Source of the DNA: Shigella phage ESh26
Strand: one strand, 5' to 3'
Sequence record: ON528736
DNA: 64,000 nucleotides
The position numbers were made by a program, and so were the translations under genes. Position 1 is the first letter of the stretch. Each line of letters opens with the position of its first letter. The notes beneath the pieces are model-generated. The model had not been told where the DNA came from. It saw only the letters and a program-made list of their open reading frames with translations, and searched no databases. Positions 26,836-52,282 of this stretch are shown here, piece by piece.

Positions 26836-27078
26836 TTATTCCTTAATTCCTAGTACTTGTTTAAAAGTCTCATCGTAATCAAGACTTTGGCCCGTTTGTT
26901 CTTTATGTTTGTATATAATATCACTTACTTCTGATAGCATATTTTTATATGAACGGGTTATAGCAGATTTAAGCACGCTGTATCTATCAGGAAATTTACC
27001 ATGTTCATTATAATACGCTATTGCTAATTCACGGACTGCTTTTTCAGCAGTCTCCATATATTCTTTACGCTTGGTCAT
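26836..27078 (-). CDS. hypothetical protein
   Basis: 80 aa from ATG 27076-27078. Confidence 0.4.
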
Positions 27079-27079
27079 T

Positions 27080-27448
27080 TTAATCCAAAATATTATTAGG
27101 CATTGGTTGAACACTCGCAAGTTCTTTAAAGAACTCAGTAGAGTCAGGTAATTTAACCATTTCCGGAGCATGCTTGCTAAATTTGTGTTTACAATGACGG
27201 CATTTATATTCAAGTTCCGGTTTACGCCAGTTAATCAATTGAACCTGTTCAGTACCGCATTCAGGACAATTAGGAACGTTTTTAGAAGCCCTTTCGCGAC
27301 GATCAACCATAGCCATAATAGCATCCCAGGCTGGAGGTTTAAAATCTAAATCGTCAGTAACTAACAGTCCTTTATCAAACCCAGCGCATGGAGTCCATTC
27401 AGGAAAATCTGAAGCTTCGGCAATATCTTCTAATAGACGCTTTTTCAT
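27080..27448 (-). CDS. zinc-ribbon protein
   Basis: 122 aa, CPECG...CRHCKH. Confidence 0.45.
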
Positions 27449-28374
27449 TTCAATACCTCAATAGCATTACGTAAACCATTTGCTTTTGCATTAAGAGCTT
27501 TTAACAATTTGGTGTGTTCGGCAATCTGGGCTTCAACTTCAATCAAACGAGCATTGAGATATTCACGTTCTTCGCTCAAGTTATCAATCTTTTCTACTTT
27601 AGGCTCTTTTACAACTGTCTTATATGTATTAGGGTTCTTCAGTTTAATTAGAATACGTGAACTGTATAACATTGAACCATTATCTTCGATTTCGTCATAC
27701 ATTTCTACTACGTCCATGATTTTTAACATCATGCGGAGTTTATAAGACAACGAACGAATAGTTTTGTTGTGCTTATTAATTTCTTTAGAGTTCATGGTGC
27801 CAAGATTACGTGAGTAATAATAAGGAACCTGGATATTAATTAACACTGATGAACCACCTGGCTTGTGTGTTACTTCATCAGCAATAACCCAATCCTTAAC
27901 ATGAACTGTATTTGTACGGTCATCACCAGCAGTAAATAGTTTGCGAGCATGCTTAAAAAGCATATTCACTTGGTCATTGAATTGACAAGCAAATTTATCA
28001 GCAAATTTAGTTTCAGGAATGGTAGATAACCAATCAGCCAAGTGGGTCTTTTTAACATCGTTAACAATAGTAAATTCAACCAAATCGGTTATAGATGTTG
28101 CAGATTTAATGAAGCTCGGCTTCATAAAGTTTTTAATGTTATCGCGAGCTACAGTAGAAGATAACATACGAGAACGTTTAAACCATTCAAGCAAATTGCC
28201 TAACGAATGAGAATAAGCGTTTTGAGTATCTTTACAGATATGATTTTCCTGACCAACATATTGAAGGAAATCACGAAGAATATTATTGATTACTGCTCTG
28301 TGTCCGATTTGATAATTACGGTGTTTAGTAATAAGACTGTCAAAATAATCAATATAATGTTTACGAGTTTTCAT
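27445..28374 (-). CDS. paralog family protein A with C-terminal coiled coil
   Basis: 309 aa, N-term MKTRKHY, C-term heptad-rich [42 protein letters not shown]. Confidence 0.5.
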   Translation of the reverse strand: MKTRKHYIDYFDSLITKHRNYQIGHRAVINNILRDFLQYVGQENHICKDTQNAYSHSLGNLLEWFKRSRMLSSTVARDNIKNFMKPSFIKSATSITDLVEFTIVNDVKKTHLADWLSTIPETKFADKFACQFNDQVNMLFKHARKLFTAGDDRTNTVHVKDWVIADEVTHKPGGSSVLINIQVPYYYSRNLGTMNSKEINKHNKTIRSLSYKLRMMLKIMDVVEMYDEIEDNGSMLYSSRILIKLKNPNTYKTVVKEPKVEKIDNLSEEREYLNARLIEVEAQIAEHTKLLKALNAKANGLRNAIEVLK

Positions 28375-28426
28375 GTTCTTCTCACTTGGTTAATGATTTA
28401 TACTCCGAGCCATCCTTGGCTTTAAA

Positions 28427-29428
28427 TTACTTAATTAACTGTAAAGCTTGTTCAAGACGATCCAGGCGATTAACAGATTCTTCCCAAATCCTTTTAGCCT
28501 GCTCATATTCTTTCTGCGCTTTATTAGAAATTTCTAGAGCTTCTTTATAAGCTTTTTCTAGTGCAATAACTTCTGGACGAATTTCTAGCGGTTCAGGCGA
28601 ATCGTCAAGATTATCCATTAGTTCCTCAAGGGTAGTTTCTTCTTTAGGAGTATTCACAATTTCATCACATTTTTGTTGGTAAATTTCTTTATTAGTCGGT
28701 GAGTACGCACACTTTACTTCACGGAGACTAACTATAATTTTATATCCTTCCCAACCACACATATTTTTGAAAGGATATGTATGAATACTTTTTACAGTTT
28801 CCATACAATCCAAAGCCGTTTCTAATTGATGAGTTATAGTGCTAGCAATTGAGAAAAATTTATTAATATTCTTTTGGTTAGCTTCTGGTGTAAAAAATTC
28901 ATAATTCACAAAAATAGCTACTTTATTTTTATCAAGCTCATATTCTTTTACGATAATCATATCAGAAGCCAAAGGATGAATTTGACGATAATCACCATAA
29001 CATAATTTAGAAGCTGATTTTAAAAGTTGCTTCTTGAAAAGTCTGAAATTACTAATCCAACGACGAGTAAAAATATTCTTAGGGTCTTCTTTAATATTAA
29101 GATGATAAGAATTAACATCACCGAACCAATTGTATCCTATTACACCTTTAGTTCGTTTAATTTCTTTCCCAAAATTACCAAGAATATCCCGATTAACCAA
29201 ATATGAAAGAAGACGAGACCCTTTAAAGGTTATCTTAATATCATCTTTATCTACGCGGCTAGAAATTTCACGAACTTCATGAATAAATTTACTGGAAGAA
29301 ACAATACTTGCATCAATACTGCTGAGCCATTGATTGATAATAGAAAGAACAGCATTCTGACTAGACATGGGTTTAACTTTATCATCAATAACGCTATTGA
29401 ATGATTTGATATATTCGTTACGAGTCAT
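28427..29428 (-). CDS. paralog family protein B with C-terminal coiled coil
   Basis: 333 aa from ATG 29426-29428 (MTRNEY), GAGGAG SD and early promoter upstream. Confidence 0.5.
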   Translation of the reverse strand: MTRNEYIKSFNSVIDDKVKPMSSQNAVLSIINQWLSSIDASIVSSSKFIHEVREISSRVDKDDIKITFKGSRLLSYLVNRDILGNFGKEIKRTKGVIGYNWFGDVNSYHLNIKEDPKNIFTRRWISNFRLFKKQLLKSASKLCYGDYRQIHPLASDMIIVKEYELDKNKVAIFVNYEFFTPEANQKNINKFFSIASTITHQLETALDCMETVKSIHTYPFKNMCGWEGYKIIVSLREVKCAYSPTNKEIYQQKCDEIVNTPKEETTLEELMDNLDDSPEPLEIRPEVIALEKAYKEALEISNKAQKEYEQAKRIWEESVNRLDRLEQALQLIK

Positions 29429-29454
29429 AATAATCTCCTCAGTAGAAAGTAAGA

Positions 29455-29486
29455 ACATTATACCACATCCTTGTGGCAAAGTAAAC
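29455..29486 (-). promoter_or_regulatory. T4-type early promoter
   Basis: GTTTAC -35, extended -10 TGTGGTATAAT, GAGGAG SD before ATG 29428. Confidence 0.65.
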
Positions 29487-30511
29487 TAGTTCAGTGCATT
29501 TAGTGCATTGTTCAGTTTAGAACGTTGCTTTGTCAGATTTTGAACTCTTGACTGTGCTTGTTCTAACACCTTTTCAGCTTCTAACATTTCATTAGTTGCT
29601 TTAACAAGTTCATCATCTACTGCTTTAAGAGACTTCTCAATCGCATCGGCGTGCCATTTTTCTACAGGTTTAAAATTTGAATTTTCAGTAGGAAGAAAAC
29701 TCACTTTATTAAGTTTCCATGCATCTGTACTACTTGAACTGTACATCCAACATTTAGGATCGTTTGATGAGTAATTGGATAAATTTAAATTTAAGTTATC
29801 TTGCACTTCTTGCTTTTTCTCTTGTGTAACTTCGTCCTTTCTCAAAAATTCATATTTAAATGAAACGATCATATCAAGTTCATATGTTGTTGTGTCTAAT
29901 TTAAATCGTTCGAAATGTTGTGAAATCTTAGACTGAACAGCGGCAACAACATCCATATACTTAAATGCTTCTGTCAACTGCGATTTAAGGCATTCGCAAA
30001 TTGAAAGAGAATTTTTTGTATTAGGTTTAAAGCTAATTCGTGCAGTTCTGTTATTTTCTTTTAATGGTCTTACTTCCATCTGAAGAGTATAACCATCAAA
30101 TTTCAGGTTCTTTAAGTTAATGTCAGAACCTTTTAATCGACTAGCCGTCGACAAAATTTGCTTTAATTGTTTACGGAATAGAGCAATAAATCTCCATTCA
30201 ATACGATAATGATTTGGATTGAAAAATCCAGATGATAAATCGACCTTACTCTGACCAACGCCTTGAACAAATAGAGGATTTTTATAATCAATAGTTTTAC
30301 AGAAATCAATGAGCTGCTCACGAGCCGTCATTTGTGTAATATACCCCGCTTTACTAAAATGACGTAACCATTCACTGCTATTCATATATTTAAAGTGAAT
30401 ATCACGATTAACTTTATCAGGGTCTAAATTATTTTGGCACAAAAATGTCATAACATCACGAGTATAACTGGCATTACGAACCATATCTTCAATTTGAGAA
30501 CGAGTTTTCAT
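29486..30511 (-). CDS. paralog family protein C with C-terminal coiled coil
   Basis: 341 aa, N-term MKTRSQ, central W..F..LFRKQLK motif shared with B. Confidence 0.5.
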   Translation of the reverse strand: MKTRSQIEDMVRNASYTRDVMTFLCQNNLDPDKVNRDIHFKYMNSSEWLRHFSKAGYITQMTAREQLIDFCKTIDYKNPLFVQGVGQSKVDLSSGFFNPNHYRIEWRFIALFRKQLKQILSTASRLKGSDINLKNLKFDGYTLQMEVRPLKENNRTARISFKPNTKNSLSICECLKSQLTEAFKYMDVVAAVQSKISQHFERFKLDTTTYELDMIVSFKYEFLRKDEVTQEKKQEVQDNLNLNLSNYSSNDPKCWMYSSSSTDAWKLNKVSFLPTENSNFKPVEKWHADAIEKSLKAVDDELVKATNEMLEAEKVLEQAQSRVQNLTKQRSKLNNALNALN

Positions 30512-30519
30512 GGTGTTCC

Positions 30520-31431
30520 TTAAGATTTAAGTAAATCGACAATTTTAATTAACTTTTCACGCTCAGATTTAGCTTTACTACTCAGTCCAGATAGTCTGAA
30601 AATTTCATCATCATATTGTTGAATAGAAATATTCAGCTCTTCAATCTGTTTATTAAAATAATCAATTTGTTCAGAATGTTTTTCGTTACTACGAACTGGT
30701 ACAGGTTTCGTAGGCAATGTAGTTGAACTGGATTCATTCGGGCGATAAATTAAAATACAACTTGAACCAATAGGGCATTTTGCACCAGATGAATATTCTA
30801 ATGTTCCAGCTTCTTTTAAAACTTCAAAAGCTAAACAGAGATGATGCCCCATATTAACATAATCTGTAGAGTGAGCTCTGATGTAATAATCATCGCCACG
30901 AATACTAAATTTAAAGCATTTAAGGTCTTCTGTATTATTGGTCTTAAAAATCATTTGTTTATCTAGACCTTTAGCTAATCGAGCGCCCAATGCTAATAAT
31001 CGTCGTTGATTTTCCCACAAATCCGCAATCATTTGATCGAATGATAATTTCGGCATTAGTCGACCGTAAAGGTCATATCCTTTATTATAATTACGAAGGA
31101 TTTCACTCGCGTTAATACGAGACAACGCTCCAATTTTATTAAGGGCTTTCATAATGCGATTAGATAAACTCATTCCAGACCCATTTGTTCGCTGCAAATG
31201 TTTTTCTAATCCAAATCCAATATCAACTTTAAATTTATCTAAAATTTCGGCATGAACATCTTTATCAATAACATTCAAATCCAAAGTTGGGTTAAATCTA
31301 TGAAAAAATTTATCTGGCTCTGCACGGCGAAATACAGTCCATTCATTCATCATTTTTTTATTAACTAAAGATTTAATTACTGCATTGACATTATTAATTA
31401 CTACTGACATATTTTCCTCACTCAATTTCAA
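30520..31431 (-). CDS. paralog family protein D with C-terminal coiled coil
   Basis: 303 aa, same architecture. Confidence 0.45.
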   Translation of the reverse strand: MKLSEENMSVVINNVNAVIKSLVNKKMMNEWTVFRRAEPDKFFHRFNPTLDLNVIDKDVHAEILDKFKVDIGFGLEKHLQRTNGSGMSLSNRIMKALNKIGALSRINASEILRNYNKGYDLYGRLMPKLSFDQMIADLWENQRRLLALGARLAKGLDKQMIFKTNNTEDLKCFKFSIRGDDYYIRAHSTDYVNMGHHLCLAFEVLKEAGTLEYSSGAKCPIGSSCILIYRPNESSSTTLPTKPVPVRSNEKHSEQIDYFNKQIEELNISIQQYDDEIFRLSGLSSKAKSEREKLIKIVDLLKS

Positions 31432-31880: not shown

Positions 31881-32408
31881 TTATGCGAGTACCGTCTTTA
31901 ACCGTTCTTCAAACTTCCGAAGAGTATTTTGGCGTTCAGCTCTTTGCTTTTTGTAAGTTTCAATACGCTCTGAAATGAGAGTGTATCGTTCATTTACCGA
32001 TTCTTTCATAAAATCAGGAATTTCACGAGAAGCTTTAATCTCGTCAAATTTATCAATAACAGCTTGCTCTTCAGCAATTAAATTATCATACATTAAAATA
32101 TCTTTCTTGATGAACTCAATATCTTCTTGAGTTACACGAGATAATTTAGATGCTTTATCCTTTTTGTACTGTTCGTTAGTATCACGAGACCAGTGTAATG
32201 CACGATTTTTATTCGTATTTTTGTAAATTTCTACAATACCGATCTCATCAATAATAACGATCCAATTCCAACGGGATTTGTAAATTTGTCCTCCATCAAC
32301 AGTGATTTCACCTCCGATTGAGATGTCATTAAAGAACTTGCTTTGTGCTTCAGATTTAAATTTACCATCGTTATAATTTACCAAGTTGAAAATATCTTTA
32401 GCGTTCAT
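31881..32408 (-). CDS. hypothetical protein
   Basis: 175 aa, early promoter upstream. Confidence 0.45.
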   Translation of the reverse strand: MNAKDIFNLVNYNDGKFKSEAQSKFFNDISIGGEITVDGGQIYKSRWNWIVIIDEIGIVEIYKNTNKNRALHWSRDTNEQYKKDKASKLSRVTQEDIEFIKKDILMYDNLIAEEQAVIDKFDEIKASREIPDFMKESVNERYTLISERIETYKKQRAERQNTLRKFEERLKTVLA

Positions 32409-32872: not shown

Positions 32873-33841
32873 TTATTTCAGAAGAGTAACCTCAGCGATT
32901 TCTTCCCAACCGTTTTTGTCGGTCATAATAAAGTCAGCAAGATAAAGAGCAGTACGCAGTGAAACATTGCGTAAACGGTTAACATTAACTTTCATCCATG
33001 ATAATGCTTTATAAGTTTCTTCATCAGAAAGACCGCGCTTTTGCATCATGTCAGTTGAAAGAATAACATCTTCAACCCTGACCATAATTTCTTCATTAGT
33101 GTGAACACCCAAATCTAAATAAACCGAGCGGGACACTAATGCTTGTAAATGTGGAGCAAGTTTAGTACCACGGTCTAATTCGCGGTCAATGTCAACGTTT
33201 GTGATAAAAACAATCGTTCCTTTAAATTCAAACTCACGCTCAATGCCTTTTTCTTCTAAGTAAGAAGACGCAGTGCTCCAGCAGACTTTACGGGTCTCTC
33301 CAGTGTCCAGAGCGGCTTTTAGAAGATTAAGAATGTCCATATCAGAGAAAACATCCACATCGTCAATCAAAAGGACAGAATTCTCTTCACGATTATTCCA
33401 AAGCTGCTCATAAAGACCAATACCAGAGATTTTACCATTAATGCTTTTATATTCAATGTATCCAATATCATTTGCTTTATTTAAAGCTTTATCTAAAGAA
33501 TACGTTTTACCAATACCTGCTGCTCCTGAGATAATTAATGAACGAATATTTCCGTTAATAATACCATTCGTCATCATTCCCATAACATTAAATCTTTTAT
33601 TAATGCGGGTTTTCATATCTTCATACGATTCTTTAACTTCTTCAACTTTTACACCATCATATGAAATATCTGATTTGTAAACCCAAACACCGCGACGTTT
33701 ACCGTCAATTTCAACAAAAACTTTACCATCTCCTTGCGCATCTACCGGAGCATTATCTGGGAACCATTCGCCTAAGAGCTCAAAAGTTCCAGAGATTTCT
33801 TTACCGAAGTAGATACCCTTATTGATAGTTACAGTTTTCAT
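32873..33841 (-). CDS. P-loop NTPase (Walker A/B)
   Basis: 322 aa from ATG 33839-33841; GAAGIGKTYS Walker A, VLLIDDVD Walker B; early promoter upstream. Confidence 0.55.
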   Translation of the reverse strand: MKTVTINKGIYFGKEISGTFELLGEWFPDNAPVDAQGDGKVFVEIDGKRRGVWVYKSDISYDGVKVEEVKESYEDMKTRINKRFNVMGMMTNGIINGNIRSLIISGAAGIGKTYSLDKALNKANDIGYIEYKSINGKISGIGLYEQLWNNREENSVLLIDDVDVFSDMDILNLLKAALDTGETRKVCWSTASSYLEEKGIEREFEFKGTIVFITNVDIDRELDRGTKLAPHLQALVSRSVYLDLGVHTNEEIMVRVEDVILSTDMMQKRGLSDEETYKALSWMKVNVNRLRNVSLRTALYLADFIMTDKNGWEEIAEVTLLK

Positions 33842-33955: not shown

Positions 33956-34969
33956 TCATTTATAATAACTTCGGTGGTTTTCAAGATAAACCCTCTCAAG
34001 GAAGTCATCCCAGAAACCCATATCTACTTTTTGCTGCATACCGTTCTTAGAAGCTTCAATGGATGCTGCTTCTACTTGATCGACCACATCTTCCAAAAAC
34101 TCTTGAACAGTTTTAAATGGATGTTTACCCAACTTCACGTCGAGAATAAATGGAGCGTCTTGAAGTGGATAGACTAAGTCACCAGTTTTGTAAATTTCCA
34201 ATAGTTGGAGTCCACCACGACAAGCATGACTCAGAGCTTTCCAGTCAATGCCCTCATTCGCTTCAGCCTTACGAGCACGTTCGCCGTATTCAGCATCAAG
34301 TTTATTCAAAGATTGCTTAAGCTCGATAAGAGAAAGCGTTGTCTGATATTTACGACCCAACACAGTGTAGAACGTTTGTGGACCTGTTTTCTCATGATTA
34401 TGGAATACCCATTCACAGAATTCGTTTTCTGGAAGACGATGCTTAATATCTTCTACCTTAGTTCGACGTTGCTTAATAGAACCATCTTCTTGATAATCAA
34501 CCCATTGCTCAGGGATTTGATTAACTACTTTCAATACATCACGTAATGCGGCCAAACGAGAACCCTTAACACCGTATTTAGAAGCTTGCTTGCGAACATA
34601 TCCTAAATAGGATTTCATGTTAGTTGTATAAAAACGAGAACGATTGTCTTGAATAAACTTCCATACATCAGGCAAATCAGATTTAACTACCAGTTCAGGT
34701 GGAGTATGGAGCATATCCAATGCTACAGTTTCACCATCTGCTGCTAATTTAAAGAAATATTTAAGACTGTATAGTTCATGGTCAATATCATCTTTAGTGT
34801 TTTTAGATGATGTGTTGTTAGTGTTTTTACTCATATGCTCTTTAACATTTCCGATAAGAATATCACGAGCAGGAGGAACAAAGATTTCTTTAAAATCTAC
34901 ATCAGATTCTGGAGTAGAAGTTCCATAAAGATGACTACCAAAATAGCTTTTCATTACTGTTTTCATCAT
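33956..34969 (-). CDS. MNT/Pol-beta superfamily nucleotidyltransferase-like protein
   Basis: 337 aa; N-terminal FGSHLYGTSTPESDVDF fits GSx3Gx5SDxD signature; terminator follows stop. Confidence 0.5.
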   Translation of the reverse strand: MMKTVMKSYFGSHLYGTSTPESDVDFKEIFVPPARDILIGNVKEHMSKNTNNTSSKNTKDDIDHELYSLKYFFKLAADGETVALDMLHTPPELVVKSDLPDVWKFIQDNRSRFYTTNMKSYLGYVRKQASKYGVKGSRLAALRDVLKVVNQIPEQWVDYQEDGSIKQRRTKVEDIKHRLPENEFCEWVFHNHEKTGPQTFYTVLGRKYQTTLSLIELKQSLNKLDAEYGERARKAEANEGIDWKALSHACRGGLQLLEIYKTGDLVYPLQDAPFILDVKLGKHPFKTVQEFLEDVVDQVEAASIEASKNGMQQKVDMGFWDDFLERVYLENHRSYYK

Positions 34970-51154: not shown

Positions 51155-51230
51155 CTCACTTAATTGGTCGAGGCAGTAGGGATCGAACCTACGACCTAGG
51201 ACTTAGAAGGTCCTTGCTCTTCCTTCTGAG
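51155..51230 (-). tRNA. tRNA-Arg (anticodon UCU)
   Basis: hand-folded cloverleaf, 76 nt, T-loop TTCGATC, CCA encoded. Confidence 0.85.
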
Positions 51231-51234
51231 CTAT

Positions 51235-51310
51235 GCCCCGTAATTGGGGTGACCGATGGGGGTCGAACCCATGACTACGAGAATCACAATCTCGAGTTCT
51301 ACCAACTGAA
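51235..51310 (-). tRNA. tRNA-His (anticodon GUG), no encoded G-1
   Basis: hand-folded, 7 bp acceptor GTGGCCG/CGGTCAC, C73, CCA encoded. Confidence 0.75.
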
Positions 51311-51423
51311 CTACGGCCACATTAATACCTACTCCAACAATCAAGATGTCTTCACACGAAATTAAGAGAAGAGTGATCAGTTCAACCCTATAATCGCGTC
51401 AAGTAGATATTAATGTGACAGTT
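51311..51423 (-). ncRNA. 113 nt spacer inside tRNA cluster, possible small stable RNA
   Basis: no ORF; palindrome TGTGACAGTTGTCACA; lies between tRNA-Asn and tRNA-His. Confidence 0.2.
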
Positions 51424-51498
51424 GTCACAAATTTGGCGGACGTGATAGGATTCGAACCTATAACCAATCGCTTAACAGGCGATCGCTCTGCCATTGAG
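51424..51498 (-). tRNA. tRNA-Asn (anticodon GUU)
   Basis: hand-folded, 75 nt, anticodon loop CTGTTAA, CCA encoded. Confidence 0.8.
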
Positions 51499-51502
51499 CT
51501 AC

Positions 51503-51589
51503 ACATCCAAATTGGTGGGGAGTGATGGAGTCGAACCACCCGAGTCGCAATGACAATGGATTTACAGTCCACACCGCTACCTCTACGGG
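51503..51589 (-). tRNA. tRNA-Tyr (anticodon GUA), long variable arm
   Basis: hand-folded, 87 nt, loop CTGTAAA, class II variable arm. Confidence 0.8.
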
Positions 51590-51602
51590 ATAACTCCCCT
51601 TA

Positions 51603-51677
51603 ATTCTTAATTTGGTGGCCCTGGGTGGAATTGAACCACCATCTGGCGATTATGAGTCGCTTGCTTGAACCTTCCAG
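51603..51677 (-). tRNA. tRNA with CAU anticodon (Ile-lysidine type by position, or Met)
   Basis: hand-folded, 75 nt; follows Thr as tRNA-Ile does in T4. Confidence 0.75.
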
Positions 51678-51678
51678 C

Positions 51679-51754
51679 TACAGGGCCTTGGTGCTGATTG
51701 ACGGAATCGAACCGCCGACCTTCTCATTACAAGTGAGTTGCTCTACCTACTGAG
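51679..51754 (-). tRNA. tRNA-Thr (anticodon UGU)
   Basis: hand-folded, 76 nt, loop CTTGTAA. Confidence 0.85.
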
Positions 51755-51759
51755 CTAAA

Positions 51760-51849
51760 TCAGCAAAACTGGCGGAGGCGATAGGATTTGAACCTATGAG
51801 TCGCCGGAGCGACTGCCGGTTTTCAAGACCGGTGCATTAAACCACTCTG
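51760..51849 (-). tRNA. tRNA-Ser (anticodon UGA), long variable arm
   Basis: hand-folded, 90 nt. Confidence 0.85.
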
Positions 51850-51851
51850 CC

Positions 51852-51925
51852 ACGCCTCCAGTCTCCATACAAGGATTTGAACCTTGGACCTCCTGATCCC
51901 AAATCAGGCGCTCTACCAAACTGAG
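51852..51925 (-). tRNA. tRNA-Pro (anticodon UGG), CCA not encoded
   Basis: hand-folded, 74 nt, loop TTTGGGA. Confidence 0.8.
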
Positions 51926-51935
51926 CTACACGGAG

Positions 51936-52101
<166 letters not shown>

Positions 52102-52102
52102 C

Positions 52103-52175
52103 CATTCTCGCGCTGGGAATAAAGGACTCGAACCTTTGCATCCTGGAATCAAAATCCAGTGCCTTACCAACTTGG
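52103..52175 (-). tRNA. tRNA-Gln (anticodon UUG), CCA not encoded
   Basis: hand-folded, 73 nt, 5' UGGGAAU. Confidence 0.85.
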
Positions 52176-52282
52176 CTAATTCCCAATTATTAACAAAGGC
52201 TCTTAAGCAAGAACCCTTGATGATAGAGGGTATTAATCAGTGCGATATGAGTTAATAATAACAAATAATTCTTAAAGCATAT

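Follow-up and report, generated by a model that had tools for sequence, protein, structure and literature searches.

What do four neighboring genes of similar length, found in tandem on the minus strand of Shigella phage ESh26, contribute to the virus, and are they related to one another? We addressed this question in a stretch of 64,000 nucleotides (nt) from the phage's sequence record (ON528736), here called the window. A preliminary description had suggested that the genes are tandem paralogs, with C-terminal coiled coils, that may be under diversifying selection, for instance for host-range or anti-defense functions. Our analysis indicated that they correspond to nrdC.3, nrdC.4, nrdC.5 and nrdC.6 of phage T4, and that they are real but very old paralogs, which form a phage-restricted protein superfamily. 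We further propose, at a probability of roughly 60%, that nrdC.3–nrdC.6 are an early-expressed, non-essential, modular family of anti-defense paralogs. The genes were already catalogued as T4 open reading frames (ORFs) and assigned to families in Pfam and PHROG, and the phenotype of nrdC.5 is published. The grouping of all four, and of their tandem relatives from other T4-like genera, in a single modular superfamily may be new; a unification with a common modular build was not found in the literature searched.

Identity of the tandem genes

The region of 3,987 bases produced megablast matches in 656 phage records (best identity 97.5%), and by its sequence the window is part of a Tequatrovirus (T4-like) genome. 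Comparison with annotated relatives and with T4 identified the four consecutive minus-strand ORFs as the orthologs named above, as a check against the nrdC.x genes of T4 had been suggested at the outset. The ORF list, together with profile matches, placed nrdC.3 (paralog A) at 27445–28374, with 309 amino acids (aa), and nrdC.4 (paralog B) at 28427–29428, with 333 aa counted from the ATG of MTRNEY, which is preceded 7 nt upstream by GAGGAG. Gene nrdC.5 (paralog C, the anti-Dsr1 factor by orthology) lies at 29486–30511 and encodes 341 aa, and nrdC.6 (paralog D) lies at 30520–31410 and encodes 296 aa. These lengths agree with the approximately 300–340 aa first described. The array had been extended to a TTG codon at 31431, but that codon falls within nrdC.7, the upstream membrane-protein gene; we took as the true start of nrdC.6 the ATG at 31410, which is preceded by a GAGG ribosome-binding site and agrees with the T4 annotation. 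The MKTR/MTRNEY start once attributed to all four proteins was found in three (MKTRKHY, MTRNEY, MKTRSQ), but the fourth begins with MSVVIN. Separately, the translation-start regions of nrdC.3 (28363–28381) and nrdC.5 (30500–30518) were identical at 17 of 19 nt; this likeness comprises upstream bases plus ATGAAAACTCGT, which encodes MKTR, and the two proteins are otherwise barely alignable.

Database profiles named the families. Both nrdC.3 (E = 6.9e-117) and nrdC.4 (E = 8.3e-166) matched phrog_1435 (PHROG 1435) over their full length, and nrdC.6 gave a full-length match to phrog_2257 (PHROG 2257; E = 1.1e-151). In the Pfam search, nrdC.5 was the only one of the four to receive a name, DUF7235 (PF23882; E = 4.2e-114, 381.6 bits against a cut-off of 30), with residues 1–341 covering profile positions 1–307 of 307. 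Newer Pfam families, PF26897 and PF26899, are listed for the T4 set of NrdC.3, NrdC.4 and NrdC.6, and PF26899 was carried by all 105 of 105 NrdC.6 homologs. PHROGs thus holds nrdC.3 and nrdC.4 in one family and nrdC.5 and nrdC.6 in two others; the databases split the four T4 genes among three families, which our analysis joins in one superfamily. Searches of the array proteins with Pfam, PHROGs and PADLOC returned family names only, with no function and no homology to defense systems.

Many GenBank records call nrdC.3 to nrdC.6 and their neighbors 'thioredoxin', a label unsupported by sequence or predicted fold. We rejected a thioredoxin or glutaredoxin identity: there was no Pfam thioredoxin match, the predicted fold was unrelated, and the test for a CxxC thioredoxin fold was negative. 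The annotation is wrong for these four genes and derives from their naming as nrdC.x.

Common ancestry of the four families

Similarity among the four proteins had been claimed from inspection. Pairwise BLASTP did not bear this out except for nrdC.3 and nrdC.4 (27% identity over 159 aa, E = 3e-7), the other five of the six pairs being non-significant; at the level of profiles and structure searches, the claim held. We built family alignments from three database searches and related loci, and compared the resulting profiles by hhalign, leaving out a natural nrdC.5+nrdC.3 chimera (P0056). The profiles of nrdC.3 and nrdC.4 matched each other with 98.4% probability (E = 8e-15). Their combined profile matched nrdC.5 over 239 colinear columns (92.7% probability, E = 4e-7), and extended profiles of nrdC.4 and nrdC.5 matched with 86% probability (E = 5e-6). 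With one Klebsiella-phage relative added, nrdC.6 matched nrdC.3+nrdC.4 over 140 colinear columns (E = 2e-4) and nrdC.5 with E = 8e-4. A 292-aa protein of Yersinia phage fHe-Yen9-01 (Yen9_292) proved equally distant from two groups, the nrdC.6 family (E = 1.5e-4) and nrdC.3+nrdC.4 (E = 1.9e-4), and its inclusion in the nrdC.6 profile strengthened the links to E = 7e-7. Unrelated neighbor families that served as controls, NrdC.10 and NrdC.11, gave E-values of 0.07–0.64.

Structure searches pointed the same way. The AlphaFold2 model of nrdC.4 (predicted local distance difference test score, pLDDT, 84) matched, by Foldseek, the BFVD model of NrdC.6 from phage JS10 (E = 2.9e-5). Its BFVD matches were proteins of approximately 300–370 aa from many Straboviridae, and included Acj61p120/p121, a tandem pair located between nrdC and nrdC.10 (that is, at the same locus) in Acinetobacter phage Acj61. 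An exhaustive HMMER search of 1.84 billion representative proteins with the nrdC.4 profile recovered only seven proteins, one of them a member of the nrdC.3 family (E = 1.9e-7), with no cellular-looking match. A common motif can be aligned by eye (WFKRSRMLSSTVARDNIKNFMK / TFKGSRLLSYLVNRDILGNFGK / HFSKAGYITQMTAREQLIDFCK / ALNKIGALSRINASEILRNYNK); the W..F.KQL...AS(K/R)L pattern previously noted for all four proteins is clear in nrdC.4 and nrdC.5 but degenerate in nrdC.3 and nrdC.6, and taken alone the short motifs common to the families are, as sequence matches, not significant.

We concluded that the hhalign and Foldseek results give statistical support to a common ancestry of all four families. 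We are confident that nrdC.3, nrdC.4 and nrdC.5 belong to one old superfamily; membership of nrdC.6 is probable, and is the weakest link. The 74 window ORFs that reach 120 aa or more contained no further members, and no DNA-level repeats pointed to recent duplication, the window offering only microhomologies of 19–25 nt. NrdC.8 was considered as a truncated member and rejected, its C-terminal helix being similar but its E-value above 0.02; the protein does end in a heptad-rich helix, and this bears no relation to the array.

Protein architecture

The model of nrdC.4 comprised a helical N-terminal region (residues 1–84), an alpha/beta core (88–235), a disordered linker (approximately 260–283) and a single 48-residue helix (285–332; 28433–28576, minus strand). 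In the model of nrdC.5, the sole reliable part was a 59-residue C-terminal helix (282–340; 29492–29668, minus strand; pLDDT 70–90). For nrdC.3 and nrdC.6 the architecture was read from alignments and heptad scores, so that boundaries in these proteins are approximate: the C-terminal heptad-rich helix of nrdC.3 covers approximately residues 263–309 (27448–27588, minus strand), and the helical region of nrdC.6 approximately residues 243–296 (30523–30684, minus strand), with a break at RLSGLSS. The models and alignments thus suggest a shared build of helical N-terminus, alpha/beta core, disordered linker and long heptad-type C-terminal helix, which is confidently modeled in nrdC.4 only. The core is weakly similar to tail terminator proteins, which have a lambda gpU-like alpha/beta fold.

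C-terminal coiled coils rich in heptads had been described for all four proteins. The helices themselves are supported by AlphaFold2 (48 residues in nrdC.4 and 59 in nrdC.5), and a heptad periodicity accompanies them. We used a crude home-made heptad score, compared with shuffled sequences and not a calibrated predictor, and approximately 0.5–5% of shuffles reached each protein's top score. The peak was C-terminal in three of the four proteins (residues 271–298 in nrdC.3, 287–314 in nrdC.5 and 246–273 in nrdC.6). In nrdC.4, however, it fell at residues 185–212, with some C-terminal windows exceeding the 95th percentile of shuffles. All four proteins terminate in '...L..A(I/L)..L(K/N)'. Within families, conservation was higher in the C-terminal helix and the motif regions than in the N-terminus and the remaining core, and in nrdC.3 this helix was the best-conserved region of its family.

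The four proteins are soluble and basic (isoelectric point, pI, 7.6–9.4), with a net charge of roughly +7 to +10 in the N-terminal and core regions. Because they are basic, with net positive cores, we rejected the idea that they are acidic DNA mimics of the Ocr/ArdA anti-restriction type.

Early promoter within the array

An early promoter had been placed inside the array at 29455–29486. A sequence scan and direct reading both located it, as an exact match to the T4 type, at 29486–29457 on the minus strand: GTTTAC, a 14-nt spacer, and the extended −10 element GTGGTATAAT. The element separates nrdC.5 from nrdC.4: it overlaps the stop codon of nrdC.5 by a single base (its own first, the codon's last) and precedes the GAGGAG-ATG of nrdC.4. 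The promoter is predicted from its sequence to drive nrdC.4, nrdC.3 and the genes downstream. The annotation of phage SA20RB carries the same early promoter at the same place, and our scan of the window detected other early-promoter-like sites upstream of nrdC.8 and nrdC.10.

Distribution, selection and natural rearrangements

Tandem copies of the superfamily were found at the same locus across the Straboviridae, in numbers that varied between phages from none or one to four. Other Escherichia-type genera had three members at the loci examined (IMG/VR contigs and phage VR7), and the Klebsiella and Yersinia phages sampled had one or two detectable members. One Tequatrovirus lineage carried a different three-gene cassette, whose members shared 78% identity with nrdC.3, 23% with nrdC.5 and 33% with nrdC.6. 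Alleles of nrdC.3 fell into three classes, at roughly 97%, 77% and 61% identity. The window's copy was 97–98% identical to other Tequatrovirus alleles and 60% identical to T4 NrdC.3, which belongs to a different allele class, whereas the window's nrdC.5 was 92% identical to T4 NrdC.5.

Several phages had natural lesions in the array. Gene nrdC.4 was frameshifted in phages G8 (L003 4895–5948) and T2. In phage ACG-C40 (L028 4305–4716), nrdC.5, nrdC.4 and nrdC.3 were deleted, leaving nrdC.6 alone intact. In Salmonella phage Manna, gene 094 (L027 3715–4752) joined residues 1–269 of nrdC.6 in frame to residues 255–333 of nrdC.4 (its linker and tail) at 'DEI', and nrdC.5 was deleted. The Manna junction coincides with a 21-nt microhomology (QQxxDEI) also found in the window, where the stretch at 30601–30621 in nrdC.6 (QQYDDEI) repeats 28658–28678 in nrdC.4 (QQKCDEI) as a direct repeat (D3) with 81% identity. 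We also observed an internal tandem duplication of approximately 82 residues (IRAHSTDY...NKQIEEL) in a 378-aa NrdC.6 homolog of Shigella phage Sf25 (P0122), which may be real or an assembly artefact.

The ratio of nonsynonymous to synonymous substitution (dN/dS), computed gene-wide, was 0.05–0.32 for nrdC.3–nrdC.6, compared with 0–0.09 for nrdC, nrdC.8 and nrdC.10. These values did not demonstrate the positive selection implied by the suggestion of diversifying selection. The part of that suggestion that stood is the diversity itself, which arose mainly by replacement of alleles or cassettes, deletion and fusion. We concluded that the array is under relaxed purifying selection combined with cassette exchange.

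A proposed counter-defense role

Evidence for function came from T4. On cells that carry Dsr1 of E. coli ECOR17, an evolved deletion mutant plates again when T4 nrdC.5 is supplied in trans (PMC9391042); the paper offers no mechanism and is silent on the three paralogs. The T4 gene resembles the window's nrdC.5 in its neighbors, in its full-length Pfam match and in having an early promoter downstream. The phenotype belongs to the T4 protein, and on the likeness between the two alleles the window's nrdC.5 would, by orthology, counteract the Dsr1 NADase, a protein with SIR2 and tetratricopeptide repeat (TPR) domains. T4 NrdC.3, NrdC.4 and NrdC.6 likewise have window orthologs of the same order and lengths.

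The flanking genes were also informative. According to a 2025 preprint (10.1101/2025.11.20.689424), T4 nrdC.1 is an inhibitor of Septu, gene 0203 of phage Bas37 is an inhibitor of Druantia III, and T4 nrdC.3 to nrdC.6 all scored as non-essential on K-12. From the Bas37 annotation we mapped gene 0203 as the ortholog of nrdC.8, two genes beyond the array. In the window, the nrdC.1 ortholog (26836–27078, minus strand) is 98.8% identical to the T4 protein, and the nrdC.8 ortholog (31881–32408, minus strand) is 98.9% identical to Bas37 gene 0203. Because the array lies between these two published anti-defense genes and includes nrdC.5, we concluded that it is part of a counter-defense island with one proven member. 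The initial guess of an anti-defense or host-range function was thus well founded, with activity shown for one of the four genes.

Timing was counted in favor of early neutralization because the array contains an early promoter and the TPR sensor of Dsr1 recognizes the phage major capsid protein, a late product (2026 preprint, PMC12803255). We propose that each paralog would be made early, from early promoters, and would bind and block one specific sensor or effector of host immunity ahead of the accumulation of the late structural proteins that trigger it. The helical N-terminus and basic alpha/beta core, which vary between paralogs and alleles, would supply specificity, and the long conserved C-terminal helix, beyond a flexible linker, would probably form a coiled coil that oligomerizes the protein. 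Under this proposal nrdC.5 would act on Dsr1, and nrdC.3, nrdC.4 and nrdC.6 on different, strain-specific defenses.

Known systems offer partial parallels. DSAD1, a phage inhibitor of DSR2, is described as blocking a SIR2 NADase defense whose sensor recognizes a late structural protein. It is a functional analogue, with no relationship of sequence or fold seen. DSAD1 acts on DSR2, not Dsr1, and NrdC.5 may bind its sensor directly. The T4 'anti-TA' (toxin–antitoxin) island (dmd, tifA, adfA) and other clustered counter-defense genes of T-even phages resemble the array in consisting of small to medium, non-essential early genes, each directed (in the array, by our proposal) at a different host system. 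In those clusters the proteins are unrelated, whereas the array's four proteins are paralogs. A broader version of our proposal is tentative, and we consider it less likely than not to survive in full: the superfamily could be a Straboviridae-wide inhibitor platform, with a conserved but exchangeable C-terminal coiled coil giving avidity through oligomerization, a fast-changing N-terminus and core blocking, in each paralog, a different pattern-recognition defense protein that senses late structural proteins (TPR sensors of the Dsr1/Avs7 type, for example), and the weakly tail-terminator-like core perhaps serving as a decoy of a structural protein.

Gene nrdC.5 is a proven host-range determinant within the array, and the unification makes its three orphan paralogs specific candidates for new counter-defense factors. 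If these also disable host immune proteins, the locus would yield three new inhibitor–target pairs, and tandem relatives at the same locus in several T4-like genera, including an Acinetobacter phage, could yield more. It would also show phage counter-defense diversifying by duplication and module swapping. Natural deletion or fusion of array genes should narrow host range, which matters for the choice of T4-like phages for therapy.

Alternative explanations

Several results weigh against an anti-defense family. Genes nrdC.3, nrdC.4 and nrdC.6 were not among the conditionally essential hits in the HIDEN-SEQ text and those of its tables that were covered, and our literature search returned no experiment on any of the three, no follow-up on the mechanism of nrdC.5 (which is unpublished there) and no renaming of that gene. 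Gene-wide dN/dS stayed below 1 throughout the array. The nrdC.5 model, built from a shallow alignment, had a pLDDT of 48, and its fold was not usable for comparison. The link of nrdC.6 to the other families combines moderate sequence statistics with one Foldseek match, and its best E-values need one intermediate sequence. Ungapped motif hidden Markov models (HMMs) built by leaving one family out failed to raise nrdC.6 and nrdC.5 above decoys. Finally, the proteins' basic charge fits nucleic-acid binding equally well.

This last point leads to an alternative that we regard as unlikely, in which nrdC.5 alone was recruited to counter-defense, and nrdC.3, nrdC.4 and nrdC.6, with no bearing on immunity, encode basic proteins that bind nucleic acids or serve host takeover. 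The positively charged N-terminal and core regions would suit such a role, nrdC.3 has a weak, sub-threshold match to an integrase SAM-like N-terminal domain (E = 0.057), and the three genes are without known phenotype. However, domain and fold searches of the array proteins detected no significant DNA- or RNA-binding domain; moreover, the genes are dispensable on K-12, vary in presence between phages and sit in a run of published anti-defense genes. Somewhat less likely again is that the paralogs do not act separately, their C-terminal helices instead assembling one hetero-oligomeric complex or docking on one common partner. The similar terminal helix in all four proteins, its place among the best-conserved parts of each family, and the Manna fusion, which joins an nrdC.6 body to an nrdC.4 tail with the frame kept, would all agree with this idea. 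Yet nrdC.5 alone is sufficient in trans against Dsr1 (PMC9391042), and because copy number varies and single members have been lost or frameshifted in viable phages, independent modules fit better than a complex. We consider it very improbable that the four proteins are not homologous and merely converged in coiled-coil composition and length. That idea could draw on the five non-significant BLASTP pairs, on the failed motif HMMs, and on the HMMER search with the nrdC.4 profile, which retrieved neither nrdC.5 nor nrdC.6. The profile matches are nevertheless colinear; they extend from motif 1 across the core, mostly outside the C-terminal helix, and have E-values of 1e-4 to 1e-15 where controls gave at least 0.07. 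The Foldseek matches are specifically to Straboviridae proteins that share the size and locus of the array's, rather than to generic coiled coils. All three alternatives are less well supported than a family of anti-defense paralogs.

Other features of the locus

Gene nrdC.2 (27080–27448, minus strand) carried a CPEC...CRHC zinc-ribbon signature, with a match to Pfam Zn_ribbon_8 below threshold. It was among the most variable genes of the locus, with 44–98% identity between phages and dN/dS up to 0.46. On the other side of the array, nrdC.10 (32873–33841, minus strand) gave weak, sub-threshold matches to AAA/STAND-type NTPases, and nrdC.11 (33956–34966, minus strand) matched the RlaP nucleotidyltransferase family above threshold.

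Farther along the window, at 51165–52185 on the minus strand, we found 11 clustered tRNA genes (Arg, His, Asn, Tyr, Met, Thr, Ser, Pro, Gly, Leu and Gln). T4 has eight tRNA genes, and the ESh26 window thus appears to carry extra ones. Septu is reported to cleave tRNA-Tyr. In phage Acj61 (L026 1229–3938), genes for a nicotinamide phosphoribosyltransferase and a ribose-phosphate pyrophosphokinase were adjacent, and this pair resembles the NAD-reconstitution pathways that reportedly counter NAD-depleting defenses.

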